A model generated the notes under the pieces. It saw only the letters and a program-made list of their open reading frames with translations, ran no database searches and was not told the origin of the DNA. From Anaerolinea sp. (GTDB lineage: Bacteria; Chloroflexota; Anaerolineae; UBA4142): DNA of 17,852 nt. Shown here piece after piece: positions 1,281 through 17,816 of this stretch. A program made the translations under genes and the position numbers. The stretch's first letter is position 1, and every line of letters begins with the position of its first letter. The stretch lies in NCBI GenBank assembly GCA_020722265.1, contig DYLA01000041.1:1-17852 (forward strand). The letters are read 5' to 3'.

Positions 1281-1317
1281 AGACCTGGAAGGTCTTCTTC
1301 AAAGACCTTCCAGGTCT
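1281..1317. repeat. Palindromic hairpin repeat, copy 1: AGACCTGGAAGGTCT-tcttcaa-AGACCTTCCAGGTCT, in the phnD-phnC intercistronic gap
   Basis: Perfect 15-bp inverted repeat with a 7-nt loop, read directly. The same 15-mer pair recurs at 13479 and 16773, and a variant at 17783. Confidence 0.85.
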
Positions 1318-1331
1318 ATTGAAAATCCACC

Positions 1332-2090
1332 ATGCTCAAAGTTGAAAACCTCACCAAGGTCTATCCGAATGGGACCGTTGCGCTGCGCGACGTCAGTTTC
1401 GAGGTCGAAGATGGCGAGTTCCTCGCGGTCATCGGCTTGAGCGGTTCGGGCAAGTCCACGTTGATGCGGTGCATCAATCGCTTGATCGAGCCGACCTCGG
1501 GGCGAATCATCTGGGATGGCACCGATCTCACCGCGCTTTCCCCAGCCGAAATGCGCAAGATGCGCCGGCAAATCGGCATGGTCTTTCAACAGTTCAACCT
1601 TGTCAAACGTTCTTCGGTGATGACCAATGTGCTCGCCGGGCGATTGGGCTATGTCTCGCCGTATCAGAGTTTATTCAACTATTTTTCCTCAGCCGATCAC
1701 GCGCGCGCGCTGAAGAACCTCGAGCGGCTGGGGCTGCAGGACAAGGCGTACGTGCGCGCCGATTCGCTTTCGGGCGGGCAGCAGCAGCGCGTCGGGATTG
1801 CGCGCGCGTTGATGCAAGAGCCCAAGTTGATCCTCGCGGATGAGCCGGTCGCCTCGCTCGATCCGGTCTTGTCTCATTCGATCCTCAAGTACCTGGAGCA
1901 GATGAACAAGGAAGACGGGATCACTGTTCTGTGCTCGCTCCACTTTCTCGATCTGGTGCATCGCTATTCGACGCGTGCGATCGGATTGAAAGAAGGCAAA
2001 ATCGTTTTTCAGGGATTACCGCAAGAGATTGACGACACGCAGTTCAAGACGATCTTCGGGCAAGAGGCAGAGCGAGTTACGATACTCTAA
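1332..2090 (+). CDS. phnC: Phosphonate ABC transporter ATP-binding protein
   Basis: Walker A GLSGSGKST, signature LSGGQQQRVGIARAL, Walker B LILADEP. The PhnC-typical FQQFNLV..SV..NVL and RLIEPTSG motifs are present. Confidence 0.9.
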   Translation: MLKVENLTKVYPNGTVALRDVSFEVEDGEFLAVIGLSGSGKSTLMRCINRLIEPTSGRIIWDGTDLTALSPAEMRKMRRQIGMVFQQFNLVKRSSVMTNVLAGRLGYVSPYQSLFNYFSSADHARALKNLERLGLQDKAYVRADSLSGGQQQRVGIARALMQEPKLILADEPVASLDPVLSHSILKYLEQMNKEDGITVLCSLHFLDLVHRYSTRAIGLKEGKIVFQGLPQEIDDTQFKTIFGQEAERVTIL

Positions 2091-2092
2091 CC

Positions 2093-4051
2093 ATGAACCC
2101 ACCATCTTCTCATTCCCAAAACGCTTTGCTCGCAGCGGTATTCTCCCTGTGCATCCCCGGCGCAGGACAACTGTACCTGCGAAAGCGTGAGCGCGGGATT
2201 GGCATTCTGGTGGGCGCGCTCGCGCTGGCGTACCTGATCAATTGGGCGCTCGCGAATTTCCAGATGGAGGCGATCGCGCTCTGGCTGTGGCTGGTGTTCG
2301 CGCTATTTTGGCTGTGGAATGTTTTCGATGCGTATCGCCTCGCGCGCGGGCAAACTACCTACGACCGGCTGGGCTTGCTGCTGGCAATCGTCGTTATCTA
2401 CGCCATCGGTTGGCAAGTGACCGACATCAATCCGGATCGGCTCATCACGCGGTTCAAAGATGTGCAGGTCGTCTTCAAGGCGCTAGTCTATCCCGATTTG
2501 TTCACGCAAGAGGGAGGTTCCTGGCGACCGAGTGAGAACTTTGGGGACATTATCGGCAAGGTGGTAGACCGCCCCGCGCCGGATTGGCTGGTTCAGTTGG
2601 GATTGGCGCAGAAAGGCGCCCTGGTTCCGACGCCGGTGCTGGGTAAGATGGCTGAGACGGTCGCCATCGGTCTGATGGCAACGTTTCTGGCAATCATTTT
2701 TGCGATTCCACTCAGTTTCTTTGCCGCGCACAATATCATGTCGCGCGTTCCCGGCGGCACCGTCATCTACTACGCGATGCGGACGTTTCTGAACGTCGTC
2801 CGTTCCGTAGACACGATCATCTGGGGTCTCATCATCGTCGTCTGGGTTGGCTTGGGCTCGTTCGCCGGGACGCTGGCGCTGACGATTCACTCCATCGCCG
2901 CGCTGGGCAAGTTGTACTCCGAAGAGGTCGAGCACATTGATCCCGGTCCCATCGAAGCGATCACGGCGACCGGCGCGAATCTGCTGCAAGTCATTCGTTA
3001 CGCCGTGATCCCGCAAATCGTCCCGCCGTTCCTCGCCTACACGCTGTTGCGCTGGGACATCAATATGCGTATGGCGACGGTGGTCGGTTTCGTCGCGGGG
3101 GGCGGCATCGGCTTTTTCGTCGTCGAGACGATCCGCAAAGGCGGCTATGAACAGTACGCGGCGGCGTTGTGGGCAGTCGCCATCGTCATCATCCTCGTGG
3201 ACTATGTGAGCGCGAAATGGCGCGCGCGGATTTTGGCTGGAGAGGTCAAGGTCTCGGCGGAAGCGCCCAAGCCGTTCTACGCGTCGTTGCGCGGACTGTT
3301 TTGGCTGGTGCTCGGTCTCGCGGTGTTCGCGCTCTGCTGGCAACTTTCGGAGATTGATTTGCGCAAGTTGCTCGAGCCGTCGCCTACGTTCGTCAAGGTG
3401 GTGCGCGATTTCGTGGCGATTGACCTGAGTCCAGAGACGTTCGACACGGTGCTCAAGCAGATGCTCGTCACGATTTTCCAGGCGTTGCTCGCGACGACGT
3501 TGGGTGGATTGGCGGCGGTCCCGTTTAGTTTTCTTGCCGCGCGCAATTTGATGGGGGGCAGCGCGCTGACGCTGGTGGTGTATTACGTGGCGCGCAGCGT
3601 GTTGAATGTGCTGCGTTCGATCGAAGCGCTGTTGTACGTCGCGATCTTTGTGTTCTGGGTTGGCATTGGACCGTTCGCCGGGATGCTTGCGCTCGCCATT
3701 ACGACGTTTGCGCTCATCGGCAAACTCTTCTCGGAGGCGATTGAGAACATTGACCCCGGACCCACGGAAGCGATTGCGGCGACTGGCGCGACCGGCTTGC
3801 AGACGATCATCTACGCGATCTTGCCGCAGATCATTCCACCGTTCGTTTCGTATTTGATTTACCAATGGGACATCAACATCCGCATCGCGACGATTGTGGG
3901 ATTTGCGGGTGGCGGCGGCGTGGGTTTGCTCTTGAATACGTATTTCAGTATGCTGCAGTACCACAAAGCCGGTACGGTAGTGGCGATGATCGTCGTGGTG
4001 GTGGCGGCGATGGATTTTGCGAGCGCGAAGATTAGGGAGCGGATGGTGTAG
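2093..4051 (+). CDS. phnE: Phosphonate ABC transporter permease: two complete PhnE permease domains fused in one 652-aa polypeptide, plus a ~100-aa N-terminal two-helix membrane extension
   Basis: The PhnE signature (EAI.ATGA..Q.I.YA.IPQI.PPF....L.RWDIN.R.ATVVGF.GGGG.G) appears twice, around residues 290-340 and 540-600. The ATG lies 2 nt after the phnC stop. Confidence 0.8.
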   Translation: MNPPSSHSQNALLAAVFSLCIPGAGQLYLRKRERGIGILVGALALAYLINWALANFQMEAIALWLWLVFALFWLWNVFDAYRLARGQTTYDRLGLLLAIVVIYAIGWQVTDINPDRLITRFKDVQVVFKALVYPDLFTQEGGSWRPSENFGDIIGKVVDRPAPDWLVQLGLAQKGALVPTPVLGKMAETVAIGLMATFLAIIFAIPLSFFAAHNIMSRVPGGTVIYYAMRTFLNVVRSVDTIIWGLIIVVWVGLGSFAGTLALTIHSIAALGKLYSEEVEHIDPGPIEAITATGANLLQVIRYAVIPQIVPPFLAYTLLRWDINMRMATVVGFVAGGGIGFFVVETIRKGGYEQYAAALWAVAIVIILVDYVSAKWRARILAGEVKVSAEAPKPFYASLRGLFWLVLGLAVFALCWQLSEIDLRKLLEPSPTFVKVVRDFVAIDLSPETFDTVLKQMLVTIFQALLATTLGGLAAVPFSFLAARNLMGGSALTLVVYYVARSVLNVLRSIEALLYVAIFVFWVGIGPFAGMLALAITTFALIGKLFSEAIENIDPGPTEAIAATGATGLQTIIYAILPQIIPPFVSYLIYQWDINIRIATIVGFAGGGGVGLLLNTYFSMLQYHKAGTVVAMIVVVVAAMDFASAKIRERMV

Positions 4052-4099
4052 AAGGTGACGGGGGTGACAAGGTAACAGGGTGATGAGCAGAAGCGCGAT

Positions 4100-4128
4100 T
4101 TGCGTTCTTGGGGAAAAGAGCGCATAAT
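4100..4128 (+). promoter_or_regulatory. Candidate sigma70-like promoter TTGCGT-N17-CATAAT in the island leader
   Basis: TTGCGT 4100-4105, 17-nt spacer, CATAAT 4123-4128. A second weaker candidate is TTGACT 4142-4147 with AAGAAT 4167-4172 (N19). Confidence 0.25.
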
Positions 4129-4347
4129 TGTTGCTGTAAGTTTGACTTTGTCCCGCGGGAGCGGATAAGAATCTTGGTTTTAGTCTCCCATTCATATTGA
4201 CGGCGCGCCGACTTGGCATTGGGAGGCGAGGTTCATCAGTATTTGCGTTTGGCTGATTGCTGTTGCCGTTGGAGGCGATAGATGGTTAGCTGTTGCTCGT
4301 GGGGCAAGTCTCGTTTTGGCGCACGATGGGGTGTAAGCCATATGAAA

Positions 4348-4400
4348 CACCTGCTATTCGGCGCGTCTGGTAGACGCGTGGGGAGCAGGTGTTTTGTGTT
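4348..4400 (+). terminator. Compound stem-loop followed by a U-rich tract; an attenuator/intrinsic-terminator-like element in the 415-bp leader of the SPFH gene
   Basis: Outer stem CACCTGCT (4348-4355) pairs with AGCAGGTG (4384-4391). Inner perfect stem CGCGTCT (4362-4368) pairs with AGACGCG (4372-4378) around a 3-nt loop. It is followed by TTTTGTGTTT (4392-4400). Confidence 0.4.
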
Positions 4401-4466
4401 TGAAGGCGGCAGAATTGAGGCAAACGCACATTCGTTACCGTGCGGGTTCGTGGCAGGAGGGCGCCT

Positions 4467-5987
4467 ATGACACGCCGTGAGCGAATTGTATTCTATCTTG
4501 GACTGTTTGGAGTGTCGGTTTTTGTTTTGCTGCCGATGGTCCTCTCTGCCTGGCTCTTTTTCAGATTGGCGTCTTGGTATGTTGGCAAGATTCCAGAACG
4601 TCGGCTTCCGCTGACCGAGTTTGTTTCACCTTCGCATAAGAGATTCTGCGAGTGGCTCAGTGGGCTGTTGAACAGTCTTGGCGGCAAAATGCTTATATTG
4701 ACCTCCCTACTTGCCGGCGGAGGAGCCATCTTGGCAAAGAGTGTGTTGGGGTTGGATTTGCTATGGGGCTACTGGCTTGCCAACGTCGGTCAAGCGGTGG
4801 TCTACTTGTTTCTTTATCCATTCCTCAAGTATTCGTATTGGGAGTACTATCTGTCGCAAGCCGAGCCGGCGGCGCACTTGCTTGTCGGTGGGAGAGAGGA
4901 GTACGACAAACTGTCCGAGACGGACAGGAAGAAACTCACACGCCACGTTGCCGATGTGCTGATTGGCATCAACAAAGGCACTTGGGTAGTGAGCGGAGGT
5001 AAAGCCCAACTGTACAACGCCCCTGCTGGTTGGCTCGCCAAGTTTGGTGGACCGGGGGTGTTAGTGGTACAAGAAGGGCACGCGGTTGTGCTGGAACGAA
5101 GCGGAAAGATTTCGCGGGTAGTGGGATGCGGGTTGACCTTTTTGGAGCCGTTCGAGCGCGTTGGTTTAGTTGTCTATTTGGCGGCTGGGGGGGAGCATTT
5201 TCAGGTCAAACAAGTTGTCACGAAAGACAAAGTGGTGATTGATGAGATTGATTTGTATGTCTATCACAAAGTTGATCAAGGCGACAAATCGCGCCGGAAC
5301 GGTATGTTTCCGTTCGATGTCAAGATCATTCTGGAAAAGGTATGGACGCCGAAAGGATCCGATCGTGAGGATAAGAGTGCGGACTTGGGGGGAGCGGTGC
5401 GAGCGGTGACGGATACAGCTGTGCGTGATGTGATTGCTCAGTATAATCTGGCTGACTTTATAACCGCCACTGGAGACATTCGACAGAGACTCAAAGGCGA
5501 ATTCAAGGCAGCCATCGAACGCGTAACCGACGCCGCGATGGGAATCAAGATTATCGTGGTGGATGTTGGGTATATCAAGTTTCCTGCCGATGTACAGCAA
5601 GAACTCGTCGAAGTTGCAAAGGCGAAGGCGAAGAAGGAGAGGGTGCTGACCGATGCCGAAGCAGAGAGACAGGCAAAAATCACTATAGGCGAGGGAGAAC
5701 GTGAATACCTGCGCAAGCAAGGTGAAGGAAAAGCGTTGGCTGCACGCGAAGAGGGATTGGCAAAGGCGGAGGGCGAATCAGAACGTGTGCGCGAAATGCT
5801 GATCGTTCTCTCGCAACTGCCGATTGACGATAAAAGCAAGATGAATCTACTTAGGACGATATTTCGAGGCGATCAGTATCGCGAGGCGGTTCGAATGTTG
5901 ATGATGATAAGTCGCTCGGCGCGCGGGGCTGTCCCACGCGTGGCGGGTGATGGTTCTGTGGATACCTCACCTGCGGAGAGCATTTGA
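4467..5987 (+). CDS. SPFH/band-7 (stomatin/HflKC/flotillin-like) membrane protein with three N-terminal TM helices and a C-terminal Glu/Lys/Ala-rich coiled coil
   Basis: AGGAGG at 4455-4460 lies 6 nt before ATG 4467, preferred over the 4440 ORF-track start. The SPFH core is VVQEGHAVVLERSGKISRVVGCGLTFLEPFERV...VIDEIDLYVYHKV...GIKIIVVDVGYIKFPADVQQE...AKAKAKKERV..AEAERQAKI. GC content is visibly lower than in the flanks. Confidence 0.8.
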   Translation: MTRRERIVFYLGLFGVSVFVLLPMVLSAWLFFRLASWYVGKIPERRLPLTEFVSPSHKRFCEWLSGLLNSLGGKMLILTSLLAGGGAILAKSVLGLDLLWGYWLANVGQAVVYLFLYPFLKYSYWEYYLSQAEPAAHLLVGGREEYDKLSETDRKKLTRHVADVLIGINKGTWVVSGGKAQLYNAPAGWLAKFGGPGVLVVQEGHAVVLERSGKISRVVGCGLTFLEPFERVGLVVYLAAGGEHFQVKQVVTKDKVVIDEIDLYVYHKVDQGDKSRRNGMFPFDVKIILEKVWTPKGSDREDKSADLGGAVRAVTDTAVRDVIAQYNLADFITATGDIRQRLKGEFKAAIERVTDAAMGIKIIVVDVGYIKFPADVQQELVEVAKAKAKKERVLTDAEAERQAKITIGEGEREYLRKQGEGKALAAREEGLAKAEGESERVREMLIVLSQLPIDDKSKMNLLRTIFRGDQYREAVRMLMMISRSARGAVPRVAGDGSVDTSPAESI

Positions 5988-6025
5988 TTGGGTTGCAAGT
6001 TGGGCAATGGTGAGGGATGATAGGT

Positions 6026-7063
6026 ATGACCAAGAGATGTCCCAGCCCCACTCAATGTACCATAAACTTGCTGGCGCGCCGCAAAGAGGAATTTAGAGGC
6101 GCGACATGGAATCTGCTTTTGTCAGCCGGGCAGGATCTGTGCAAGGAAGATCAAGAGCGGGCTCGCCAAAGCTTTGACCAATCGCTCAAACTGGCTGAGG
6201 ATTTATCGGCGGTCAATGATCGGGACGCCGATTGCCTACGGGCGACGGCTTTAGCGTGCTTGGGTGCACTGGCTCTATGTCAAAATAAGGCGGATGACGC
6301 GCTCAGGTACTTTCAGCGGAGTGAAGCCGCCTTTGCTTCAAAGGGGGAGAGGTACGGTCAAGCTGTTGTGCTGTATGCGGAGGCGCACGCCTACAGGATC
6401 AAACAGGACTGGCGACGCGTTTTTTGTTGCTATGAGCAAAGTTCGCGCCTGTTGGCGTTTTTGGCGAGTGATCCGCTTACGGACTATACGCGTCAACTTG
6501 TGAGAGAAGAGCATCGCCAAACCGTTGCCGAATGGGAAAAGGATCTTGGCGTGGACGTGGAGCGAGGGGCAGGCAAGAGACTCGACTTCCGGTTGGGCTT
6601 CTTACCAGTCTTTGGTAAGATTGCGGCGGGTAATCCTTATCCTGTTCCAGAGGATGTAGAAAACTACATAGAAACGGATCGTTTTATCATTGATGGTAAG
6701 CCATATGCCATTGCCAAGAGCCAACATCTTACACTCAACTTTTCCCCTTACGTGATGTATGTAGCACTCTGTGTTAGCGGTGATAGCATGAATATGGCGG
6801 ACATAAATATCGGCGACTATGTGATCCTTCAAGTGCCATCGGCTGCCGGATTGCGGTTAGAACCGAAGACAGGCGATATAGTGGTGTTAGCATTTCCGGA
6901 GGAGAACACAGTGACGTTGAAACGTTGCCGGCGGAGTCCCAAGAAGATTACTTTCTATCCTGAGAGCACCAATCCCACGCACCTATCGTACGAATTCGAT
7001 GCGTCGCTAGATATACCTGTTAGGATCGTCGGCATCCACGTCGCCACCCTCAAGCCATTATGA
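6026..7063 (+). CDS. LexA-like S24 family autopeptidase with a non-HTH, Cys-rich TPR-like helical N-terminal domain (~190 aa)
   Basis: The C-terminal domain aligns motif-for-motif with LexA. LPVFGKIAAGNPYPV matches LPLVGRVAAGEPLLA, with the Ala-Gly scissile bond encoded at 6626-6631. The Ser nucleophile is in VSGDSM and the general-base Lys in TVTLKR. No HTH is recognisable in the N-terminal part. Start 6026 (GAGGGA 8 nt upstream) is preferred over 6017. The stop TGA 7061-7063 overlaps the psuG ATG. Confidence 0.8.
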   Translation: MTKRCPSPTQCTINLLARRKEEFRGATWNLLLSAGQDLCKEDQERARQSFDQSLKLAEDLSAVNDRDADCLRATALACLGALALCQNKADDALRYFQRSEAAFASKGERYGQAVVLYAEAHAYRIKQDWRRVFCCYEQSSRLLAFLASDPLTDYTRQLVREEHRQTVAEWEKDLGVDVERGAGKRLDFRLGFLPVFGKIAAGNPYPVPEDVENYIETDRFIIDGKPYAIAKSQHLTLNFSPYVMYVALCVSGDSMNMADINIGDYVILQVPSAAGLRLEPKTGDIVVLAFPEENTVTLKRCRRSPKKITFYPESTNPTHLSYEFDASLDIPVRIVGIHVATLKPL

Positions 7064-7983
7064 TGCTCCTCGCCCTCGAATCCACCCTCATCGCCCACGG
7101 ACTCCCGTATCCACACAACCTCGCCGCCGCGCGCGAACTGGAAGCCATCGCTCGCGCGCACGGCGCCCAGCCGCGTACCATCGCGATCATCGGCGGCGAA
7201 ATCAAAATCGGGTTGAGCGACGCGGAGTTGCAGCATCTCGCGCGGGCGCAGGGCGTGCTGAAACTCGCACGACGCGACCTCGCGATGGCGCTCGCACAGA
7301 AACGCGACGGCGCGACCACCGTCAGCGCGACGATGTTCCTCGCGCATCGCGCCGGCATCCGCGTTTTCGCCACCGGCGGGATTGGGGGCGTACACCGCAC
7401 GCCAAAGGATGAAGGCAGAAGGCAGAAGGATGAAAATGCCCCTTCGTCCTTCATCCCTCATCCTTCATCCTTCGATGTCTCTGCCGACCTTCCCGAACTC
7501 GCGCGCACTCCCGTCGCCGTCGTCTGCGCGGGCGCCAAAGCGATTCTCGATTTGCCCGCGACGCTCGAATGGCTAGAGACATTCGGCGTGCCGGTGCTCG
7601 GTTGGCAGACGGACGAATTCCCCGCGTTCTACTCGCGCGCGTCGGGCTTGCGCGTGCCCGCGCGCGTCGAGTCGGCGGAGGATGCCGCGCGCGTCATCCA
7701 GACACATTGGGAACTGGGCATGAGCAGCGGCGTCCTCGTCTGTGTGCCGATCCCGCACCAAGACGAGATTCCGCGCGCGGTGATCGAGCCGCACATCGAA
7801 CGCGCGCTGCGCGAGGCGGAAGAGCGACGCATCGTCGGCGGCGCGGTGACGCCGTTCGTGCTGGCGCGTTTGGCGGAGTTGACGCAAGGCGCGAGCGTGC
7901 GCGCGAACATCGCGCTGCTCAAGAACAACGTCGCCGTTGCGGCGGAAATCGCCCAAGCCCTGCAAGTTATTCGTCCAACCTGA
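7060..7983 (+). CDS. psuG: Pseudouridine-5'-phosphate glycosidase (PsuG / indigoidine synthase A-like); apparently N-terminally truncated, with a ~20-aa in-frame insertion
   Basis: LALESTLIAHGLPYP, FATGGIGGVHR, VVCAGAKAILDL..TLE.LETFGVPV and TPFVLARLAELT match the PsuG family. The ORF begins about 25 aa later than the recalled canonical PsuG sequence. An extra segment TPKDEGRRQKDENAPSSFIPHPSS lies between GGVHR and FDVSADL. Confidence 0.75.
   Translation: MMLLALESTLIAHGLPYPHNLAAARELEAIARAHGAQPRTIAIIGGEIKIGLSDAELQHLARAQGVLKLARRDLAMALAQKRDGATTVSATMFLAHRAGIRVFATGGIGGVHRTPKDEGRRQKDENAPSSFIPHPSSFDVSADLPELARTPVAVVCAGAKAILDLPATLEWLETFGVPVLGWQTDEFPAFYSRASGLRVPARVESAEDAARVIQTHWELGMSSGVLVCVPIPHQDEIPRAVIEPHIERALREAEERRIVGGAVTPFVLARLAELTQGASVRANIALLKNNVAVAAEIAQALQVIRPT
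7404..7474. repeat. AT-richer palindromic mini-element inserted in frame within psuG (GGATGAAGG/CCTTCATCC arm repeats)
   Basis: Left arm GGATGAAGG (7407-7415) and GGATGAAAA (7428-7436). Right arm CCTTCGTCC (7441-7449), CCTTCATCC (7448-7456) and CCTTCATCC (7462-7470). The arms are mutually complementary, centred on CCCC 7439-7442. Confidence 0.5.
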
Positions 7984-8669: not shown

Positions 8670-8675
8670 GCAACG

Positions 8676-8706
8676 AAAAACCCGTCTTCACCGCAGACGG
8701 GTTTTT
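8676..8706. terminator. Bidirectional Rho-independent terminator between the convergent kinase-like gene and clpC
   Basis: AAAAACCCGTCT (8676-8687), loop TCACCGC, AGACGGGTTTTT (8695-8706). A 12-bp stem is flanked by an A-tract on one side and a T-tract on the other, so it can terminate both strands. Confidence 0.8.
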
Positions 8707-8710: not shown

Positions 8711-11209
8711 CTACGTCGGCATCTCCGCCGAAGGCATCTCCACCGCGACGTGCGCTAGGTCAGGCGCAGTCTCCTTCAATCGAAATACGATGCCGGCGCG
8801 ATCATCCGCGTCCACGATGATGTGTTGCCCGGCTTTGAATTCTCCAGCCAGCAACTTGTGCGAGAGCGGCGATTCGATCCGGCGCTGCAACAATCGGCGC
8901 AGCGGGCGCGCGCCGAATTGCGGATCGTACCCTTCCCGCGCCAACCACTCGCGCGCCGCTTCGGTCAACTCGATTTCGATCTCCTGCTCTTTCAGCCGCG
9001 CCGCGATCTCTTTCATTTCCAAGTCCACGATGCGTTTGATCTGCTCGCGATTGAGCACGTGGAAAATGATCACCTCGTCAATACGATTGAGGAACTCGGG
9101 ACGGAAAGTGCGCTTGAGCGATTCTTCGATCTCGGCGTAAGTCTTTTCCACTTTTCTGTCGGCGACTTGGCCGGGCGCGTGGAAACCGAGCGTTCCGCCT
9201 TTTTGCGCGAACTCGGTGCCGATGTTCGAGGTCATAATGATCACGGTGTTGCGAAAATCTACCGTGTGTCCCTGTCCATCGGTCAGCTGTCCCTCCTCGA
9301 GCACCTGGAGCAGCGTGTTCCAAACGTCCGGATGCGCCTTTTCGATTTCATCGAAGAGAATGACTTGGTAGGGTCGCCGGCGCACCGCTTCGGTGAGTTG
9401 TCCCCCCTCGTCGTAGCCGACGTATCCCGGGGGCGCGCCGATCAAACGCGAGGCGGTGTGTCGCTCGCTGTATTCGCTCATATCCACGCGAAAGAGCGCG
9501 TCCGGATCATCGAACAAGAACTCGGCGAGCGCGCGCGCGAGCGCGGTCTTGCCGACGCCGGTCGGTCCAAGAAAGATGAAAGAGCCGGTGGGACGCTTGG
9601 GGTCGGCGAGTCCAGAACGCGCGCGGCGAATCGCATCGCTGATAGCGTTGATCGCTTCGTCCTGACCCACGATGCGCTCGTGCAGCCGCGCTTCCATCTG
9701 AAGGAGTTTGTCCGCTTCCGTCTGCATCATCCGCGTGACCGGGATGCCGGTCCACTTGGCGACTACTTCGGCGATGTCTTTTTCGCTGACGACTTCATCC
9801 AGTCCTTTTTCTCTTTGCCACGCCGCGCGTTTTTCCGCAAAGACCGCTTCGAGCGCCAGTCGCTCGGCGCGCGATTTGACGGCGGCTTCATAGTCGCGCG
9901 CCGTCGCCGCGTCTTCTTCCGCCTTTTGCAACTCGCGCAGATGCATCTTCATTTGCTTCAACTCGGGCGGCATCGAATAGATCGCAATCCGCAACTTGGC
10001 GGCGGCTTCGTCCATCAGGTCAATCGCCTTGTCCGGCAAATAGCGGTCGCTGACGTACCGATGCGAGAGCCGCGCGGCCGCGTCGAGTGCGCTGTCGTTG
10101 ATCTTGACTTGATGATGCTGTTCGTACCGATCGCGCAGCCCGCGCAGCATCGCCATCGTCGCTTCGACACTCGGTTCCGCGACGTACACCGGCGAAAAAC
10201 GGCGCTCGAGCGCGGCGTCCTTTTCGATGTGATTGCGGTACTCGTCGAGCGTCGTCGCGCCGACGCACTGCAACTCGCCGCGCGCGAGCGCGGGCTTCAT
10301 CATATTCGACGCGTCGATCGCACCCATCGCCGCGCCCGCGCCGACAACGGTGTGCACTTCGTCAATGAACAGGATGATTTCTCCTTTGGCGTTGTGGATC
10401 TCATCGAGCGCGGCTTTGAGGCGTTCTTCGAATTCACCCCGAAAGCGCGAGCCCGCCACCATCGCGCCCAAATCGAGTTGCACGACGCGGCGATTCATCA
10501 GCGGTTCTGGCACGTCGCCGGTGACGATTTTCTGCGCCAGCCCTTCGACGATGGCGGTCTTGCCGACGCCCGGTTCGCCGATGAGCACGGGGTTGTTCTT
10601 GGTGCGGCGCGAAAGAATTTGGATCACGCGCAGGATTTCTTCGTCCCGCCCGATCACCGGGTCGAGTTTGCCTTGGCGGGCGAGCGCGGTCAGATCGCGC
10701 GAGTAACGGTCGAGGGTGCGGTACTTGCCCTCGGCGCGCGGATCGGTGACGCGCGCGCCGCCGCGAATTTCGGGAAGGAGGCGCAGGATGCGCTCGCGTG
10801 TCAAGCCGCAATCGTTGAGGATGCGCCGCGCCGCGCCGTCGCGTTCGCCCGCGAGCGCGAGCAGGAGATGTTCGGTCGAAACGTAATCGTCTTGGAGGCG
10901 TGCCGCTTCTTCGTTAGCCGCGTCCACGAGCCGCTTGACGCGCGGGGTGATGTAGACTTGGTCGCCCATATAAGGCGGATAGTACGCCTTGGGACTCATC
11001 TGCAAGAGTTCGTCTACGCGTTGATGTAACGTATCCGCGTCCACGTTCATACGGTCGAGAATCATCTGGACTGTACCGCCGGTTTGTTCGATCAGCGCGA
11101 GCAACAGATGCTCGGCATCGAGTTGCGAATGGCGATAGCGTTGGAGGATTTCGTGAGCGCGCGCAAACGCATCTTGCGCGCGTTCGGTAAATCGGTCTGG
11201 TCGCATCAT
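8711..11209 (-). CDS. clpC: ATP-dependent Clp protease ATP-binding subunit / Hsp100 chaperone, ClpC-type (two Clp_N repeats, two AAA+ modules, short UVR-like linker)
   Basis: Walker A GEPGVGKT (D1) and GPTGVGKT (D2). The ~95-aa D1-D2 linker resembles the ClpC UVR region (..[14 protein letters not shown]..) rather than the long ClpB M-domain. GAGAGGA RBS lies 5 nt before the ATG. Confidence 0.8.
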
Positions 11210-11233
11210 AGGCGTCCTCTCTTTCCGCCGATA

Positions 11234-11262: not shown

Positions 11263-11281
11263 TTCGATTTCAGATTTATGA

Positions 11282-11310
11282 TTGCGGATTTCCGATTTTG
11301 TGCGTATAAT
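11282..11310 (+). promoter_or_regulatory. Plus-strand promoter TTGCGG-N17-TATAAT; the TSS would fall 0-2 nt before the pncC ATG (leaderless)
   Basis: TTGCGG 11282-11287, spacer 17, TATAAT 11305-11310. The ATG of the next gene is at 11319 with no SD sequence. Confidence 0.4.
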
Positions 11311-11318
11311 GCCTGCCG

Positions 11319-11810
11319 ATGATTGACTGTAACGAACCGCTCGAAGTCGTCGTGGGCAGGTTGCTCGTCGAGAAAAAGCAGACGCTTGCCATCGCCGAAT
11401 CTTGCACCGGTGGCTTGCTCACGCACCGGCTCACGAACGTGCCCGGGAGTTCGGCGTACGTCATCGCCTCCGTCATCGCGTACGCCTACGAAGCCAAAGT
11501 CGCCGCGCTCGGCGTGTCCTGGGACACGCTCAACCGATTCGGCGCGGTCAGCGCGGAAACGGCAACCGCGATGGCGCGCGGCGCGCGCGCGAAATTCTCT
11601 GCTACGCTCGGCTTGGCGATTACTGGCATCGCGGGACCGGGAGGCGGCACGCCGGAAAAGCCGGTGGGTCTGGTGTACCTCGCGCTCGCGGACGCGGACG
11701 ATGTTATCGTTGAACGGCACCTTTGGAGCGGCGACCGCGTGCGGAACAAGGAGCAGAGCGCGCAAGCCGCGCTCGAATTGTTGTGCCGTCATCTAAAACG
11801 TAAAACGTGA
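11319..11810 (+). CDS. pncC: CinA C-terminal domain protein / nicotinamide-nucleotide amidohydrolase PncC
   Basis: LAIAESCTGGLL...SSAYVIASVIAYAYEAK...GLAITGIAGPGGGT..KPVGLVYLAL is the CinA_C signature. Confidence 0.8.
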   Translation: MIDCNEPLEVVVGRLLVEKKQTLAIAESCTGGLLTHRLTNVPGSSAYVIASVIAYAYEAKVAALGVSWDTLNRFGAVSAETATAMARGARAKFSATLGLAITGIAGPGGGTPEKPVGLVYLALADADDVIVERHLWSGDRVRNKEQSAQAALELLCRHLKRKT

Positions 11811-11829
11811 AACGAAAAAAGGAGCCGCC

Positions 11830-12675
11830 GTGAACATCTTCCAAGCCATCCTCCTGGGCATCGTGCAAGGTCTCACCGAGTTCATTCCGATTTCCAGTTC
11901 GGCGCACCTCGTCATCATTCCTTGGCTGTTCCAGTGGGACGAGCCCGGTCTCGCATTCGACGTGGCACTGCATCTGGGGACGCTCGTCGCGCTGCTTTGG
12001 TTTTTCGCGGCGGATTGGGCGCGGCTGTGGCGCGCCGGCGTCGCGAGCATCATCGAACGCAAGGTGGGCGACGATGTGGATCGCCGGCTGGCGTGGCTGC
12101 TGGCAGTCGGCACTATCCCAGGCGCGCTCGTGGGCGCCTTGGCGGAAAGCCAGGTCGAGGAGTTGTTTCACACGCCGAATGCGCCCCATCGCGCGGAGGC
12201 GATGGTCGCGATGGGTGTCATCATCGCGCTGTTAGGCGCGGCGCTCTTCGTCGCCGAACGGATCGCGCGCCACACGCGCTCGCTGAAACACGTTTCGCTC
12301 AAGGATGCGATTGTGATCGGTTGCGCGCAGGCGCTCGCGATTTTCCCAGGGGTCTCGCGCTCGGGCGCGACGATCACCGCCGGTCTCGCGCTCGGTTTGG
12401 AGCGCGCGGCTGCCGCGCGTTTTTCGTTCCTTCTCTCCGCGCCGATCATCGCGGGCGCGGGCGCCAAGAGCGCGTTCGATCTGGCGCGCGCGGGGATTGC
12501 GCCAGCGGAGTTGGCGCTCTTTGCCCTCGGCGCGCTAGCGGCGGCGGTCAGCGGTTATTTGTGCATCAGGTTCTTGCTCCGCTTTTTGCAGCGCCACTCG
12601 ACCGATGTCTTTGTGTACTATCGCTGGCTGCTCGCGGCGTTCATCATCGTCGTTGCGGTGATGCGGGGGAATTGA
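11830..12675 (+). CDS. uppP: Undecaprenyl-diphosphate phosphatase (BacA/UppP)
   Basis: GTG start with AAAAAAGGAG RBS. The N-terminus MNIFQAILLGIVQGLTEFIPISSSAHL is the UppP hallmark. Multi-TM. Confidence 0.9.
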   Translation: MNIFQAILLGIVQGLTEFIPISSSAHLVIIPWLFQWDEPGLAFDVALHLGTLVALLWFFAADWARLWRAGVASIIERKVGDDVDRRLAWLLAVGTIPGALVGALAESQVEELFHTPNAPHRAEAMVAMGVIIALLGAALFVAERIARHTRSLKHVSLKDAIVIGCAQALAIFPGVSRSGATITAGLALGLERAAAARFSFLLSAPIIAGAGAKSAFDLARAGIAPAELALFALGALAAAVSGYLCIRFLLRFLQRHSTDVFVYYRWLLAAFIIVVAVMRGN

Positions 12676-12680
12676 TCGTC

Positions 12681-13478
12681 GTGCTAAGAATTTTACCGCT
12701 GGGATTGTTCGCCGTGCTGCTCGCCGCGTGTGCGGCAATGCCAACGCCGCGTGCGCCGACGCGGCTCACGTTCGCCGGTTCCGATTCGATGGAGTCGCTC
12801 GCGCGATCGCTCGCCCACGCGTACGCCGAGTCGCATTCCGGGGTGTCGTTCACGGTGCAGACATCGAACTCGGCGAACGGTTTGCGCGCCGCGCGCGAAA
12901 TCTCCGGGACGATTGGAATGGTCGCCCGCGCGATCCAGCCCGCCGAACTGGAGCGGTTGCGCGCGGTCGTGATGGCGCGCGATGGCATCGCCATCATCGT
13001 CAACAAGAGCAATCCCATCAACGCGATTATGCGCGCGCAAATCGTCGAAGTGTTTGCCGGGCAAATCCTCACGTGGCCCACCGGCGCGCTCGCCGGCAAG
13101 AGCATCGTCGTCGTCAGCCGCGAGGAGGGGTCGGGGACGCGTGACGCGTTCGAGGCGATGGTGATGGGGGGGACGCGCGTGACGCGCACGGCGGTGGTGA
13201 TGCCGAATCAAGCCGCGATGGTGGATTTCGTCGCGCGCACGCCGGAGGCGATCGGCTATTGTTCGATGGGCGCGGTTACCCAAGACGTGCGCGCGCTGGT
13301 CGTGGACGACGTGCTGCTATCACCCCAGACCGTCGAAAGCAGACAGTATCCGTTCATCCGCGCGTTTGCGTTCGTCATTCCGCAGCCGGCGTCGCCGGCG
13401 GTCGAGGATTTCGTCGCGTTCGCGCTCGGCGCGGAGGGGCAGCGGATTGTCGCGCAAAAGTTTGGGAGAGCGCCGTGA
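12681..13478 (+). CDS. PstS-like phosphate-binding periplasmic lipoprotein (PBP superfamily), orphan, with no pstCAB adjacent
   Basis: GTG 12681 lies 5 nt after the uppP stop. Signal/lipobox LFAVLLAACAA. RLTFAGSDSMESLARSLA...GTIGMVARA...SREEGSGTRDAFE resembles the PstS family. The long track ORF from 11922 is an out-of-frame overlap with uppP. Confidence 0.65.
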   Translation: MLRILPLGLFAVLLAACAAMPTPRAPTRLTFAGSDSMESLARSLAHAYAESHSGVSFTVQTSNSANGLRAAREISGTIGMVARAIQPAELERLRAVVMARDGIAIIVNKSNPINAIMRAQIVEVFAGQILTWPTGALAGKSIVVVSREEGSGTRDAFEAMVMGGTRVTRTAVVMPNQAAMVDFVARTPEAIGYCSMGAVTQDVRALVVDDVLLSPQTVESRQYPFIRAFAFVIPQPASPAVEDFVAFALGAEGQRIVAQKFGRAP

Positions 13479-13511
13479 AGACCTGGAAGGTCTCCAAGAC
13501 CTTCCAGGTCT
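13479..13511. repeat. Palindromic hairpin repeat, copy 2: AGACCTGGAAGGTCT-cca-AGACCTTCCAGGTCT, immediately after the pstS-like stop codon
   Basis: Perfect 15-bp inverted repeat with a 3-nt loop, starting 1 nt after TGA 13476-13478. A 37-nt stretch is identical to copy 3. Confidence 0.85.
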
Positions 13512-13601
13512 GGTCTTTCGAAATTTACACACATTTTACATTCCCCTAACAACAAAATAGTCAATTCCGTTTATGATGTCGTCAGAATGGAGGAAACGGT
13601 T

Positions 13602-15197
13602 ATGCAACTTTCCCGCCGCGAATTTCTAAAAGATATGGCGTTCGTCGCCGCGATGGCCGGCTTGCCCGGCTGGACGACTGACCTCGATGAAGCGCCGCCG
13701 CTGGAGATGCTGTCGCTCAACGCCGGCGCGTACCCCTGGCAGTGGACGCCGCGCAGCGACATCGGTCAAGGCAATCCGATCATCACCGCGCTCAATCGCA
13801 TTGCCTTCGGTCCGCGCCCCGGCGATTTCGAGCGCGCGCAGCAGATGGGTGTTGATGCGTACATTGAGGAGCAACTGGCGCCGGAATCCATTGACGACAG
13901 CGCGCTCGAACAAAAACTCGCGGCGCGCTATCCCACACTCTCGATGAGCAACGCCGAATTGATGCGCAACTATCCGCGTCCTGCTCCCGCCGCTCAGCGA
14001 GACCCCCAAGCGAAGCAAACGCCCGGACCCATGCAGGTAGTTCAGGAACTGCAAGAGGCGACGATTCTACGCGCGCTGTACAGTCAGCGCCAACTCCATC
14101 AAGTGCTCGTTGACTTTTGGTCGAATCATTTTTCGATTTACATCGCCAAGAACGATTGCCGCTGGATGAAGACGGTGGACGACCGCGAGGTGATTCGCCA
14201 ATACGCCTTCGGCAAGTTCAAGGACTTGCTCCTCGCGAGCGCGCAAAGTCCGGCGATGCTCGAGTATCTTGACAATCGCTTGAACGTCAAAGGTGTCGCG
14301 AACGAGAACTATGCGCGCGAGATCATGGAACTGCACTCGCTCGGCGTGGACGGCGGCTATACCCAGAAAGATGTGCAAGAATTGGCGCGCGCGCTGACCG
14401 GCTGGACGATTATGCCGCTGCGCGCCGCCTCCCTCGCCCCAGACAAAGCCGGAACGTTCATCTTCGATCCCAAGCGGCACGACGATGGCGCGAAGAAAAT
14501 CCTGGGCGTCGAGTTGCCCGCCGGCGGTGGCATCAACGACGCGCTCAAGATCATTGACGTTCTCGCGAATCATCCTTCGACCGCGCGGTATCTTTCGCGG
14601 AAACTGGTCACACGCTTTGTGGCGGACAATCCACCCGACGCGTTGGTGCAGCGCGCCGCGCAGACCTTTGCGCAGACCGGCGGCGACATCCGCGCCGTGC
14701 TGGGAACGATCCTCCACTCGGACGAATTCAAAAACTCGTTCGCGCAAAAGATCAAGCGACCGTTCGAACTGATCGCGTCTGCGCTCCGCGCGCTCGACGC
14801 GCAGATCGAAGATGGGCGCGCCTTGAACGCCGCGCTGCGCTTGATGGGGCAGGGACTCTTTTTGCACCCCACGCCGGACGGCTATCCTGACAATGGCGCG
14901 GCGTGGATCAACACCAGCGCTCTCCTCGCGCGATGGAACCTGGCGCTGCTTGCCGCGGCAAATCGCGTGCCGCGCGGCAAGGTGGATTTGCAAGCCGCGA
15001 TGAGCGGCGCGTCCGCCAAGACCAACGGCGAGGTGGTGGATTATTGGGTCAACTACATTTTGCATCGCAACATCTCGGAGAGTGACCGGCAAAAACTGAT
15101 CAACGCGGTGGGCGATTCGCGCGCGACGTTTGAAATGGCCAAGTTGCCTCTGCTGGTCGCGCTGATTCTCGCATCGCCGCATTTTCAATATCGCTGA
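13602..15197 (+). CDS. DUF1800 family protein with a twin-arginine (TAT) signal
   Basis: GGAGGA at 13589-13594 precedes ATG 13602. SRREFLK TAT motif. Paired with a downstream DUF1501 gene, the usual family arrangement. Confidence 0.75.
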   Translation: MQLSRREFLKDMAFVAAMAGLPGWTTDLDEAPPLEMLSLNAGAYPWQWTPRSDIGQGNPIITALNRIAFGPRPGDFERAQQMGVDAYIEEQLAPESIDDSALEQKLAARYPTLSMSNAELMRNYPRPAPAAQRDPQAKQTPGPMQVVQELQEATILRALYSQRQLHQVLVDFWSNHFSIYIAKNDCRWMKTVDDREVIRQYAFGKFKDLLLASAQSPAMLEYLDNRLNVKGVANENYAREIMELHSLGVDGGYTQKDVQELARALTGWTIMPLRAASLAPDKAGTFIFDPKRHDDGAKKILGVELPAGGGINDALKIIDVLANHPSTARYLSRKLVTRFVADNPPDALVQRAAQTFAQTGGDIRAVLGTILHSDEFKNSFAQKIKRPFELIASALRALDAQIEDGRALNAALRLMGQGLFLHPTPDGYPDNGAAWINTSALLARWNLALLAAANRVPRGKVDLQAAMSGASAKTNGEVVDYWVNYILHRNISESDRQKLINAVGDSRATFEMAKLPLLVALILASPHFQYR

Positions 15198-15269
15198 ACC
15201 GACGAAGGACGGAAAACAAGTGTCCGTCTGCCGGCGTCGGTCATGCGTCAGCCATTGGAGGATTCTCAA

Positions 15270-16601
15270 ATGAGTGATACAACCACTCGACGTGAATTAC
15301 TCAAGCGCACCGGCGTGTTGACCATCGGCGCGCTGACCTTCCCGCTGTGGATGCCGCGCCTTGCCTTCGCCGCGCCCGACACGGCGACGTCGGGCGACAT
15401 TCTCGTGTGCGTGTTTATGCGCGGCGCGGCGGATGGATTGAATCTCGTCATCCCGCACGGCGACAAGGATTACTATGCCGCGCGCCGCGCCCTCGCGATC
15501 CAGGCGCCAGCCTCAAGCAACCCCGATGCGGCGATTGACCTCGACGGCTTTTTTGGATTCCATCCCCTCTTGCGCCCGCTGAAAGAGGTCTGGGATGCCG
15601 GCGCACTTGCGGTCGTGCACGCCGTTGGTTCGCCCGACCCCACGCACTCGCACTTTGACGCGATGGATTTCATGGAACGCGGCACGCCGGGCGAAAAGGC
15701 GATCCCGACCGGATGGATCGGCCGTCATTTGCAGCAGATGGCGAGCAACAACAAGTCGCCGTTTCGTGCAGTGGGAATGGGCAGCCTGCTCCAGCAATCC
15801 CTGCGCGGTCCGGTGGCCGCGACCTCGCTGCAGAGCATCGCCGACTTTCACCTGAAGGGTGATTCCCGGCAAGTCGAGTACTTTCAGAACGCGCTCGCGT
15901 CGCTGTACGAGGGCGATGGATTTCTCGCAAGCGAGGGAACGCAGACGCTGCAAGCGATGCGCGATCTTGCCAAACTCGCGTCATCGAATTATACGCCTGC
16001 AAATGGTGCGAAATATCCAGACACGCCATTCGGCAAAGGATTGTCCGCACTCGCGCAGTTGATCAAAGCCGGGCTGGGAGTCGAAGTCGCGTGCGTGGAC
16101 ATTGGCGGATGGGACACGCATGTGCAGCAAGGCACTCTGAAAGATGGGCAGATGCCGCGGCTCATCACCGAGTTTGCCAGTGGGCTGGCGGCATTCTACG
16201 CCGATATGCAAGATCAGATGAAGCGCATCACGCTCGTCACGATGACCGAGTTCGGTCGGCGCGTGCAAGAGAACTCGAATCAGGGAACCGATCACGGACA
16301 TGGCAGCGTGATGTTTGTGATGGGCGGCGGCATCAAGGGCGGCCGGGTGTATGGCGAGTGGCCCGGCTTGGGCAAAGACGCTCTCTACGGTCCTGGCGAC
16401 CTCGCGATCACGACCGACTTTCGCGACGTGCTGGGTGAGATCGTGCAAAAGAGATTGATGAACTCGAATCTCGCGGCGGTGTTCCCAAATTATCCGACCT
16501 TCAAGTTTCGCGACATTGCCAATCAGCAAACGGCATCGCTGAACACGCCGCAGTACGCGCTCGCATTGCCCTTCAGTTCCAAGATTCCGATGGGGGCGTA
16601 G
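15270..16601 (+). CDS. DUF1501 family protein (sulfatase-like fold) with a TAT signal
   Basis: GGAGG precedes ATG 15270. TRRELLKRTGVLTIGAL TAT signal. Conserved ...WDTH...GTDHGHG... motifs. Confidence 0.75.
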   Translation: MSDTTTRRELLKRTGVLTIGALTFPLWMPRLAFAAPDTATSGDILVCVFMRGAADGLNLVIPHGDKDYYAARRALAIQAPASSNPDAAIDLDGFFGFHPLLRPLKEVWDAGALAVVHAVGSPDPTHSHFDAMDFMERGTPGEKAIPTGWIGRHLQQMASNNKSPFRAVGMGSLLQQSLRGPVAATSLQSIADFHLKGDSRQVEYFQNALASLYEGDGFLASEGTQTLQAMRDLAKLASSNYTPANGAKYPDTPFGKGLSALAQLIKAGLGVEVACVDIGGWDTHVQQGTLKDGQMPRLITEFASGLAAFYADMQDQMKRITLVTMTEFGRRVQENSNQGTDHGHGSVMFVMGGGIKGGRVYGEWPGLGKDALYGPGDLAITTDFRDVLGEIVQKRLMNSNLAAVFPNYPTFKFRDIANQQTASLNTPQYALALPFSSKIPMGA

Positions 16602-16641
16602 GAGCGCCCTCTTTGGCGGCGGAAGGTGCCTGGTGCTGCCA

Positions 16642-16675
16642 ACCTCGCCGGTGTTCAAAACCGGCGAGGTTTTTT
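16642..16675 (+). terminator. Rho-independent terminator after the DUF1501 gene
   Basis: ACCTCGCCGG (16642-16651), 9-nt loop, CCGGCGAGGT (16661-16670), then TTTTT 16671-16675. Confidence 0.75.
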
Positions 16676-16679
16676 CTAC

Positions 16680-16707
16680 TTGCCAAAAGTGCGAATCAGG
16701 ATACAAT
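16680..16707 (+). promoter_or_regulatory. Candidate promoter TTGCCA-N16-TACAAT for the ATPase gene
   Basis: TTGCCA 16680-16685, spacer 16, TACAAT 16702-16707. The transcript would carry hairpin copy 3 in its 5'UTR. Confidence 0.3.
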
Positions 16708-16772
16708 TGAATCCGCGAATGGCGCGATAGAGTGCAGCGGTGTCCGATTTAGTTCTTTTGCCTGAGAGACGA

Positions 16773-16805
16773 AGACCTGGAAGGTCTCCAAGACCTTCCA
16801 GGTCT
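16773..16805. repeat. Palindromic hairpin repeat, copy 3, identical to copy 2, ~35 nt upstream of the ATPase start codon
   Basis: AGACCTGGAAGGTCT-cca-AGACCTTCCAGGTCT, read directly. Confidence 0.85.
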
Positions 16806-16838
16806 GGGTTTGACTTTTCATCCTTCAGGAGACCCACA

Positions 16839-17774
16839 ATGCCCAACCCCTTCTTCTACGGCGGTCGTGTCAATCCAGAGCAGTTCGTCGGACGACGCGC
16901 AGAGTTGCAGCGAATCTTTGCGGGCTTGGAAGTCGCCCACACGGGGCAGATGCAAAGTTTCTCCGTCGTCGGTCCGCGCCGCATCGGCAAATCGTCGCTG
17001 TTGTTTTACGTCGCGCAGCGGTACGCGCACTATCTGACGCACGCCGCACCATATCGCTTTGCCTATATCGAGTTGCAGGACGCGCACTGCCACACGCTCA
17101 ATGGTTTGCTCGATGGGATTCTCAAGCAACTGGATGCGGGTGAACTCGTCGGCAATCACGCGCCGCTGGTGGAATTTCAAGACGCGCTCCTTGCGCTCAG
17201 AAAGCGCGGCGCGCTCCCCGTCGTCTGCCTCGATGAATTCGAGGAACTCATCCACCGCCGCGAGCAATTCACGCTCGACTTTTACGAATCGTTGCGCTAT
17301 TTGATGAACCAGCACGCGCTCGCGTTCATCACCGCGTCCAAATCTCCGCTGATTGATCTCGCGCAAACGCTGGGCTACACCTCCCCCTTCTTCAACATCT
17401 TCACCCACCTGCCGCTGGGCGAACTCACCGACGACGAAGCGCGCGCACTGCTGGTGCGCGGCGCGGACTGTGACCGTGCGTTCACGCCGACCGAACAAAA
17501 TGACGCGTGGCGTCTGGCTGGCAATCATCCGTACAAACTGCAACTCATCGGCAGTTTGCTGTACCAAGCGAAAGCGGATAACCGCGCGGTGGATTGGGCG
17601 GAACTGCGGCGCGAGTTTGTGATGCAACTGCAAAACGTGGGGCTGCAAGCGAACGTGGCGCGAATGTTGGAACAAGTTGGACAAAAATCCAAAGGCACGG
17701 TGATTTCTGCGGTGAAAGCGGCGATACAGGCATTGTTCAAAGCGTGGATTGATAGTTGGAATCAACCGCGTTAG
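16839..17774 (+). CDS. Standalone AAA+/STAND-type NTPase domain protein (AAA_16/Arch_ATPase-like), 311 aa, with no sensor repeats
   Basis: AGGAGA RBS at 16826-16831. N-terminal NPFFYGGRV..FVGRRAELQRI, Walker A GPRRIGKSSLL, Walker B VVCLDEFEE, sensor-like FITASKSP. The ORF-track start at 16740 would run through the hairpin and is rejected. Confidence 0.7.
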   Translation: MPNPFFYGGRVNPEQFVGRRAELQRIFAGLEVAHTGQMQSFSVVGPRRIGKSSLLFYVAQRYAHYLTHAAPYRFAYIELQDAHCHTLNGLLDGILKQLDAGELVGNHAPLVEFQDALLALRKRGALPVVCLDEFEELIHRREQFTLDFYESLRYLMNQHALAFITASKSPLIDLAQTLGYTSPFFNIFTHLPLGELTDDEARALLVRGADCDRAFTPTEQNDAWRLAGNHPYKLQLIGSLLYQAKADNRAVDWAELRREFVMQLQNVGLQANVARMLEQVGQKSKGTVISAVKAAIQALFKAWIDSWNQPR

Positions 17775-17782
17775 CGCAAGAG

Positions 17783-17816
17783 AGACCTGTCAGGTTTCCA
17801 AAAACCTGACAGGTCT
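17783..17816. repeat. Variant palindromic hairpin, copy 4: AGACCTGTCAGGT-ttccaaaa-ACCTGACAGGTCT, right after the ATPase stop codon
   Basis: 13-bp perfect inverted repeat with an 8-nt loop. It shares the AGACCTG...CAGGTCT termini with copies 1-3. Confidence 0.75.

Follow-up and report, generated by a model that had tools for sequence, protein, structure and literature searches.

Four intergenic hairpins of an Anaerolinea contig as probable REP-type elements of a family linked to a RAYT-like transposase

Introduction

Repetitive extragenic palindromes (REPs), the REP-associated tyrosine transposases (RAYTs) and the REPtrons are well described (PMC2817692, PMC3116915, PMC8266576), and a second REP group with perfect palindromes has been recognised (Corneloup 2021, PMC8266576). 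Among RAYTs, subclass 2.4 (Bertels group 4) is associated with "double-foot" REPs such as GTAGGGGCGAAAAATTTTTCGCCCCTAC of Caldilinea, and subclass 2.1, which includes 2.1.2, was reported without any REPs (Quentin 2018, PMC6006769). The present analysis deals with contig DYLA01000041.1 of Anaerolinea sp. (assembly GCA_020722265.1), referred to as the window over its whole length of 17,852 nt, and with four perfect hairpins that recur in it. Each consists of an inverted pair of 15-mers that carry an AGAC foot and a free central triplet and are separated by a loop of 3-7 nt, and it forms one 15-bp hairpin on either strand. They are very probably REP-type elements, that is short non-autonomous palindromic repeats spread and homogenised within the genome by a RAYT-like HuH/Y1 single-stranded DNA transposase. 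Elements of this type are known in kind, but as a family these are non-canonical and, it appears, undescribed: neither the hairpin sequence nor the peptide it can encode was found in the searchable literature, nor in the supplements of Quentin 2018 and Di Nocera 2013.

With REPtrons (Nunvar 2010, PMC2817692; Corneloup 2021, PMC8266576) the family shares a short, mostly extragenic palindrome flanking a single HuH/Y1 transposase gene, and the transposase is homologous to the E. coli TnpA_REP. In contrast to REPtrons the palindrome has neither a GT[AG]G guide nor a bulge, and it ends in AGAC...GTCT feet. The symmetric and perfectly paired form with a foot at both ends is shared with the REPs of subclass 2.4, as is a patchy distribution over phyla that includes Bacteroidetes and Caldilineae, but the feet there are GT[AG]G/C[TC]AC and here AGAC/GTCT (Quentin 2018, PMC6006769). 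As in the REPINs of Pseudomonas (Bertels and Rainey 2011, PMC3116915) an inverted doublet folds to one long hairpin and is homogeneous within a genome, although here the spacer is only 3-7 nt and the unit 33-37 nt, against ~100 nt for those REPINs.

Four hairpins in the window

Eight 15-mers match AGACCTNNNAGGTCT at no more than one mismatch in the window, where the chance expectation is 0.01 and none of 200 dinucleotide shuffles gave eight, and all of them are paired as four inverted doublets. All eight belong to units that are inverted doublets of a shorter motif, as REPINs are, and the units are palindromes of 33-37 nt with covariation support, within the ~20-40 nt of a REP that folds to a hairpin. 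A preliminary description of this sequence had reported four perfect hairpins with 15-bp stems, and these do lie at 1281-1317, 13479-13511, 16773-16805 and 17783-17816. They are the longest perfect hairpins of the window, no strand is assigned to any of them, and with four copies in 17.9 kb every one is intergenic.

Copy 1 (1281-1317) reads AGACCTGGAAGGTCT-tcttcaa-AGACCTTCCAGGTCT with a loop of 7 nt; it lies 6 nt past the TAA (1272-1274) of a PhnD-like gene and 14 nt ahead of the ATG at 1332, and so occupies the greater part of the 57 nt that separate this binding-protein gene (195-1274) from an ABC ATPase gene (1332-2090). Copy 2 (13479-13511; 33 nt, with the 3-nt loop CCA) abuts the TGA (13476-13478) of a PBP_like_2 gene, with a DUF1800 gene ~90 nt downstream, and is part of a 37-nt unit at 13477-13513. 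Copy 3 (16773-16805) lies within the same 37-nt unit, here at 16771-16807, and the two units are identical (repeat family D20) including two flanking bases per side, as had been noticed at the outset. This copy follows no stop codon: it stands ~100 nt after a canonical terminator with T-run (16641-16671) and 33 nt before the ATG at 16839, with a promoter-like site at 16680-16707 upstream of it. Copy 4 (17783-17816), AGACCTGTCAGGTTT-ccaa-AAACCTGACAGGTCT, begins 8 nt past the TAG (17772-17774) of a STAND/ATPase_2 gene and is of the family-consensus type, its sequence type being that of most matches listed from other genomes. The placing of three copies right after a stop codon is confirmed for copies 1, 2 and 4, at 6, 0 and 8 nt respectively. 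By central triplet the window holds three copies with GGA and one with GTC.

Folded as RNA each copy gives a single long hairpin on either strand, with energies between -27 and -31 kcal/mol (z-scores -5.1 to -7.9), and this hairpin is the minimum-free-energy fold of each. No T-run follows any of copies 1-4 and a terminator scan gave only weak partial minus-strand matches, which agrees with the preliminary description in that these are not classical intrinsic terminators. Rfam searches with the whole window and with an 81-nt slice returned only chance-level miRNA hairpin models, far under their gathering scores.

The hairpin family in other genomes

A one-genome-per-species collection was scanned with AGACCTNNNAGGT-N(5-12)-ACCTNNNAGGTCT, giving at least 120 loci with 128 hairpins, and the family figures that follow rest on the matches listed. 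The hairpin can be written as AGAC[C/T]T-NNN-A[G/A]GT[T/C]T followed by a loop of 3-4 nt and the complement. The motif recurs in at least 120 loci of several phyla; the preliminary description had expected hundreds of copies in the source genome. Complete genomes among the matches include Desulfonema magnum (CP061800.1), Saccharicrinis (OY763044.2) and an Anaerolineae genome (JBGLNJ010000001.1). Phyla were assigned by hand from the record titles, shown for 80 of the loci, and comprise 41 Bacteroidota, 26 Chloroflexota, 5 Gammaproteobacteria (Methylococcaceae, Thioploca, Halobeggiatoa), 4 Desulfobacterota, 2 Rhodothermota, 1 Acidobacteriota and 1 candidate-phylum genome.

Beyond what the pattern required, the arm mostly ends in TTT and the loop is A/T-rich and of 3-4 nt among the matches listed, 102 of 128 being exactly 33 nt long. 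The central NNN, which the pattern left free, is complementary from arm to arm in 114 of 128 where two would be expected, and takes the form of 32 different triplets. An alignment of 52 distinct members has 98.1% of its cells paired and 7 of 15 pairs changed on both sides, a covariation score that 0 of 500 shuffles reach, and sliding of the partner drops the pairing to at most 53% of cells. The complementarity of NNN together with the covariation indicates that the conserved object is one long hairpin between the two arms. Variants reached by way of the transposase contexts described below (AGACTTCCGAAGTCT, AGACTTCCGATTTCT and AGACCTCCGAGATCT) are each compensated on the opposite arm, and so the family can be broadened to an AGAC...GTCT foot with a covarying interior.

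Hairpin variants are homogeneous within a genome, with one or two NNN variants in each. A further 46 copies were counted over 850 kb of related loci, and tandem runs occur outside the window at L110 3714-3863 and L202 12948-13082. Tabulated against the genes around them, 64 of 132 hairpins listed from other genomes lie within 30 nt of the stop codon of an open reading frame (ORF) that reads towards the hairpin.

Two further observations concern the company the hairpin keeps. In IMG/VR it was seen on 57 stretches (L159-L215) of viral contigs, with five copies in 11 kb of L185 and three in tandem at 51-nt spacing in L202; no RAYT gene was found on the hairpin-bearing IMG/VR viral contigs, so that there is no direct evidence for a viral vector. 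Canonical "double-foot" REPs share contigs with the AGAC-type hairpin, namely GTAGGGGCGGGGTGACCCCGCCCCTAC at L132 3082-3108 and TAGAGACGTTGCACGCAACGTCTCTA at L148 6321-6346.

Association with a RAYT-like transposase

Every ORF of 60 aa or more lying no farther than 2.5 kb from one of the 128 hairpins listed (120 genomes) was clustered with no prior target, and the only recurrent hairpin-adjacent family was an IS200-like HuH/Y1 transposase of ~190-255 aa. Its motifs are YYHxYNRGNN, (N/T)H(F/Y)H, LFQ and YIHxNP, then W/F-S-S/N-Y after the core, and H58, H60 and Y125 of the HuH and Y motifs are invariant. These transposases match the NCBIfam model NF047646 of REP-associated tyrosine transposases (REP_Tyr_transpos) at E=1e-10 to 1e-14 and weakly match Pfam Y1_Tnp. 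A profile built from 13 of the sequences matches TnpA_REP of E. coli (structure 4ER8) at E=6.5e-6, the aligned part spanning IWQ...YIYINP and with it the YIxxNP tyrosine motif, whereas a single-sequence search of the PDB was uninformative (4ER8 at E=0.89). A search for homologues gave 1,599 protein clusters, many of them named "REP element-mobilizing transposase RayT" by JGI.

The association holds in the reverse direction. Five independent contexts fetched from the homologues all have the 33-nt hairpin, around the gene in four and inside the gene in all five, the internal one lying within the RAYT ORF 205-247 nt from its start. In L123, L125 and L129 the RAYT gene has a hairpin on either side, 9-17 nt ahead of its start codon and 6-11 nt past its stop. 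Over 12 RAYT contexts a hairpin is found 6-150 nt from a gene end in 10, on both sides in 6, and inside the ORF ~200-250 nt from the start in 6. The family is thus associated with a RAYT-like gene that is flanked by the same palindrome in genomes other than the source. The ORF-internal copy is in-frame, is 33 nt long, encodes QTSEVFKTSEV and is conserved across a Chloroflexota clade, and it varies in step with the local variant of the flanking hairpins. The transposases of Flavobacterium and Anaerolineales share only 33% identity and yet are flanked by a near-identical hairpin; near identity of a REP in Flavobacteria and Anaerolineae, despite RAYTs so far apart, is another difference from REPtrons.

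The exact GGA/TCC variant of the window was found on 23 contigs in a metagenome scan. One of these GGA-type loci, L131, has five hairpins in 4.85 kb and starts inside a RAYT gene (fragment ...LYVNTNAEHH...YPFSS...), the stop codon of which lies 22 nt ahead of a GGA-type hairpin.

In comparison with TnpA_REP a Phe (of LFQ) stands here where the tryptophan of IWQ aligns, which is W94 in the GTAG-binding region of TnpA_REP (Quentin 2018, PMC6006769). The protein signature (NH[FY]H / FQ / YIHLNP with a serine motif) fits the published subclasses 2.1.2 and 2.6 at least as well as 2.4, judged by motif signatures alone.

Overall the link to a RAYT that the preliminary description had proposed is borne out, by an IS200-like HuH/Y1 transposase that is the sole recurrent neighbour, is a homologue of TnpA_REP and is flanked by the hairpin in other genomes. 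That description had also spoken of REP/BIME-like repeats, of which the REP type stands by virtue of the RAYT-linked palindrome; the part concerning bacterial interspersed mosaic elements (BIMEs) does not, as a mosaic organisation of spaced REPs with alternating orientation and linker motifs was not seen in the window, where the four copies are isolated.

Beside these results it was observed that in L125 (8750-11462) the RAYT gene separates hsdS from hsdR in a type I restriction-modification operon, with the same layout in L126-L128, and that 33-nt hairpins lie inside the called hsdS (9397) and hsdR (10800 and 11430) ORFs of L125, which are unbroken.

Occupancy and turnover at orthologous sites

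Spacers orthologous to that of copy 1 hold the same element at the same place in L153 and L155 (binding protein 93% identical) and in L156 (85%), and so the site has been occupied for long. The relatives have NNN=GTC/GAC where copy 1 has GGA/TCC, both arms being changed, and by this comparison the resident was converted to the prevailing variant of the genome, by gene conversion or replacement. In L157 (binding protein 84% identical) an unrelated GC-rich hairpin, GAGAGGAGGGC-cagcc-GCCCTCCTCTC, occupies the same spacer at 10892-10958, a hint that a hairpin as such may be useful between the binding-protein and ATPase genes.

The other three copies give a different picture. The syntenic locus L219 (DUF1800 protein 87% identical) is without copies 2-4 and has other DNA at both places, so it would seem that copies come and go on that time scale. 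At 12492-13787 it carries a different AAA+ P-loop ATPase gene where the window has the STAND/ATPase_2 gene (16839-17774); as the latter is bracketed by copies 3 and 4 and is missing from L219, the hairpin-flanked gene occupies a variable spot.

Copies 2 and 3 are also met at the ends of L218, a Logan short-read contig from another sample of the same organism, which runs from inside copy 2 (its positions 1-26) to inside copy 3 (3290-3315). Hairpin repeats of this kind therefore break assemblies, and REP-type hairpins explain such contig breaks.

Origin of the hairpins

That these hairpins are REP-type elements rests on the structure of the family and on its transposase, and proliferation or homogenisation within the genome is indicated by the identity of copies 2 and 3 over 37 nt, by the swapped triplet of copy 1 relative to its relatives and by the absence of copy 2 from L219. 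A RAYT is presumably present and active in the source genome. Several results weigh against this account. The source contig of ~18 kb carries no RAYT gene, and the transposases of other genomes score 41-55 bits, under the 80-bit cut-off of the NF047646 RayT equivalog. The conserved GT[AG]G (or CGTC) foot tag is absent, the foot being AGAC...GTCT inside the stem with variable flanks. Logos of the 128 flanks listed and a search for duplications in them gave no target-site duplication and no conserved target motif, hence no documented insertion events, and no clean empty site was met either, since the copy 1 spacers are all occupied or hold another hairpin and the surroundings in L219 are rearranged. 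Finally, the loop asymmetry (C versus G) relative to the direction of the adjacent gene has no strand bias in 132 hairpins among the matches listed, which speaks against a constraint at the RNA level and points rather to one at the DNA level on a symmetric hairpin.

Of the other explanations the one that comes closest keeps the REP ancestry and drops the mobility: the copies would be domesticated relics, immobile here and kept by selection as RNA structures (stabilisers or attenuators), their likeness due to gene conversion. The lack of a RAYT gene on the contig suits this, as does the occupied copy 1 site in three relatives with binding proteins 85-93% identical, and the unrelated hairpin of L157 (84% identical) looks as if any hairpin were needed in that spacer. 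However, copies 2 and 3 are the same over 37 nt down to two flanking bases each side, the loss or gain of copy 2 suggested by L219 would be recent, the unbiased loops in the 132 hairpins among the matches listed do not follow transcription, and an RNA-stabilising role is unlikely for the 33-nt copies inside ORFs, so that relics are considered unlikely. Another view, in which terminators without a U-tract or RNA processing sites evolved in place with no tie to a mobile element, draws on the start of three of four copies 0-8 nt past a stop codon and on the similar position, within 30 nt of a facing ORF stop, of 64 of 132 hairpins listed elsewhere. A stable hairpin soon after stop codons is indeed shared with intrinsic terminators, but the U-tract is lacking here, the same 30-nt sequence recurs in different phyla and on the flanks of a transposase gene, ordinary U-tract terminators exist in the same window, copy 1 is internal to an operon, copy 3 comes after a real terminator, and no Rfam family matches; evolution in place is accordingly very improbable.

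The preliminary description had allowed for each 15-mer (AGACCT-NNN-AGGTCT) being a dyad site for a dimeric regulator that binds double-stranded DNA, with two such adjacent operators per unit, and every window arm is a 6-3-6 palindrome, with ACCT-NNN-AGGT palindromic in most family members. Paired operators need no complementarity of NNN between arms, yet it is present in 114 of the 128 matches listed, and in 11 of 25 hairpins not chosen by the search pattern the palindromy within the arm is broken with the arm-to-arm pairing intact; the neighbouring genes are moreover functionally unrelated, and this alternative has been given up as hardly credible. A miniature inverted-repeat transposable element moved by a DDE transposase would likewise be a short, dispersed and palindromic repeat. 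Here the whole 33-nt unit is a single hairpin, target-site duplications are absent and flanks are not conserved, and it is a Y1 transposase that recurs nearby and no DDE transposase, leaving next to no probability for such an element.

Proposed mobility and effects on expression

If the hairpins are REP-type elements, then by analogy with E. coli TnpA_REP and with IS200/IS605 the transposase would recognise the hairpin folded in single-stranded DNA, for example at replication forks, and would cut and rejoin next to the foot. The "double foot" symmetry of the element means that both strands would offer the same substrate.

Once in place the copies may also act on RNA. Those of the window sit in what are probably transcribed spacers, three of them behind stop codons and the other in a probable 5' untranslated region, and RNA hairpins of -27 to -31 kcal/mol would most plausibly be barriers to 3'-exonucleases or partial terminators there. 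Work of the Higgins group in the late 1980s reportedly found the REP between malE and malF of E. coli to be an mRNA stabiliser that raises the upstream message over the downstream one. Copy 1 has the corresponding place in an ABC operon, with the binding-protein gene ahead of it and the other transporter genes behind it. This is a positional analogy only, and on that analogy copy 1 would favour the message of the binding protein over those of the ATPase and permease that follow. Such intercistronic hairpins may be mRNA stabilisers or attenuators.

A wider proposal, put forward tentatively and with some doubt, is that the family represents a REPtron lineage of pan-phylum reach that is as yet undescribed; its range would take in Chloroflexota, Bacteroidota and Desulfobacterota, the large sulfur bacteria and methanotrophs among the Gammaproteobacteria, and some IMG/VR viral contigs. 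The REP would be near-invariant in it (AGAC foot, ACCT/AGGT boxes and free triplet) and the transposase diverged to ~33% identity, and a length of 33 nt, or 11 codons, would keep the reading frame intact when the element enters a gene, as at the conserved position within its own transposase gene (QTSEVFKTSEV). Were this so, the hairpins would be a REP family for a RAYT branch resembling subclass 2.1.2, for which none had been found.

In annotation these hairpins are better labelled REP-type repeats than terminators or operators. They are an example of a REP sequence conserved across phyla and of repeated in-frame insertion into genes, its own transposase gene included, and with fixed feet, two 4-bp boxes, a free central 3 bp and more than 30 natural variants they amount to a natural experiment on hairpin recognition by HuH/Y1 enzymes. 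The spacer between binding-protein and ATPase genes, with its conserved occupancy, is a simple place to test whether a REP serves to express the genes of one operon at different levels in bacteria other than Proteobacteria.

Other features of the window

The gene set was taken from Pfam scans and from the gene calls of the public contig CDHVFE010000028.1 (18,107 nt, metagenome-assembled genome GCA_975271335.1), which is 99.7% identical to the window, and the closest homologues of the window proteins bear source names like Chloroflexi or Anaerolineae bacterium. The PhnD-like binding protein (195-1274) and ABC ATPase (1332-2090) are followed by a fused permease (2093-4051). Further genes encode an SPFH protein, an S24 peptidase, a PsuG/IndA protein, ClpC (minus strand), CinA and BacA, and beyond the PBP_like_2 gene, which ends at 13478, come DUF1800 (13587-15197), DUF1501 (15243-16601) and the STAND/ATPase_2 protein (16839-17774).

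Canonical intrinsic terminators lie at 8676-8706 (AAAAACCCGTCT-tcaccgc-AGACGGGTTTTT, bidirectional and between convergent genes) and at 16641-16671, the latter followed by TTTTTT. These are the other two long hairpins of the window and have A/T-tracts; the organism thus uses ordinary U-tract terminators, and the four hairpins are not its normal ones.

An imperfect heptamer palindrome at 7405-7472 (AAGGATGAAGGCAGAAGGCAGAAGGATGAA, 8 nt, TTCGTCCTTCATCCCTCATCCTTCATCCTT) is in-frame inside the PsuG/IndA ORF (7060-7983), where it encodes GGVHRTPKDEGRRQKDENAPSSFIPHPSSFDVSADL, and resembles a palindromic insert of another type in the gene of a conserved enzyme. In L219 the stop codon of the PBP_like_2 gene is followed by a comparable heptamer run, aaggatgagggcggaaggaggagggatgag.

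Directly after copy 4 a distinct repeat begins (17821-17852), which runs on in L216 at 14222-14523. It comprises two tandem units of ~130 nt with inverted GTGGGGGCGAGGCATTCGCC / GGCGAATGCCTCGCCCC(CAC) arms, and is thus a doublet like that of REPINs whose foot is a canonical GT[AG]G (GTGG). From this repeat it appears that a classical REP family is also present in the source organism.

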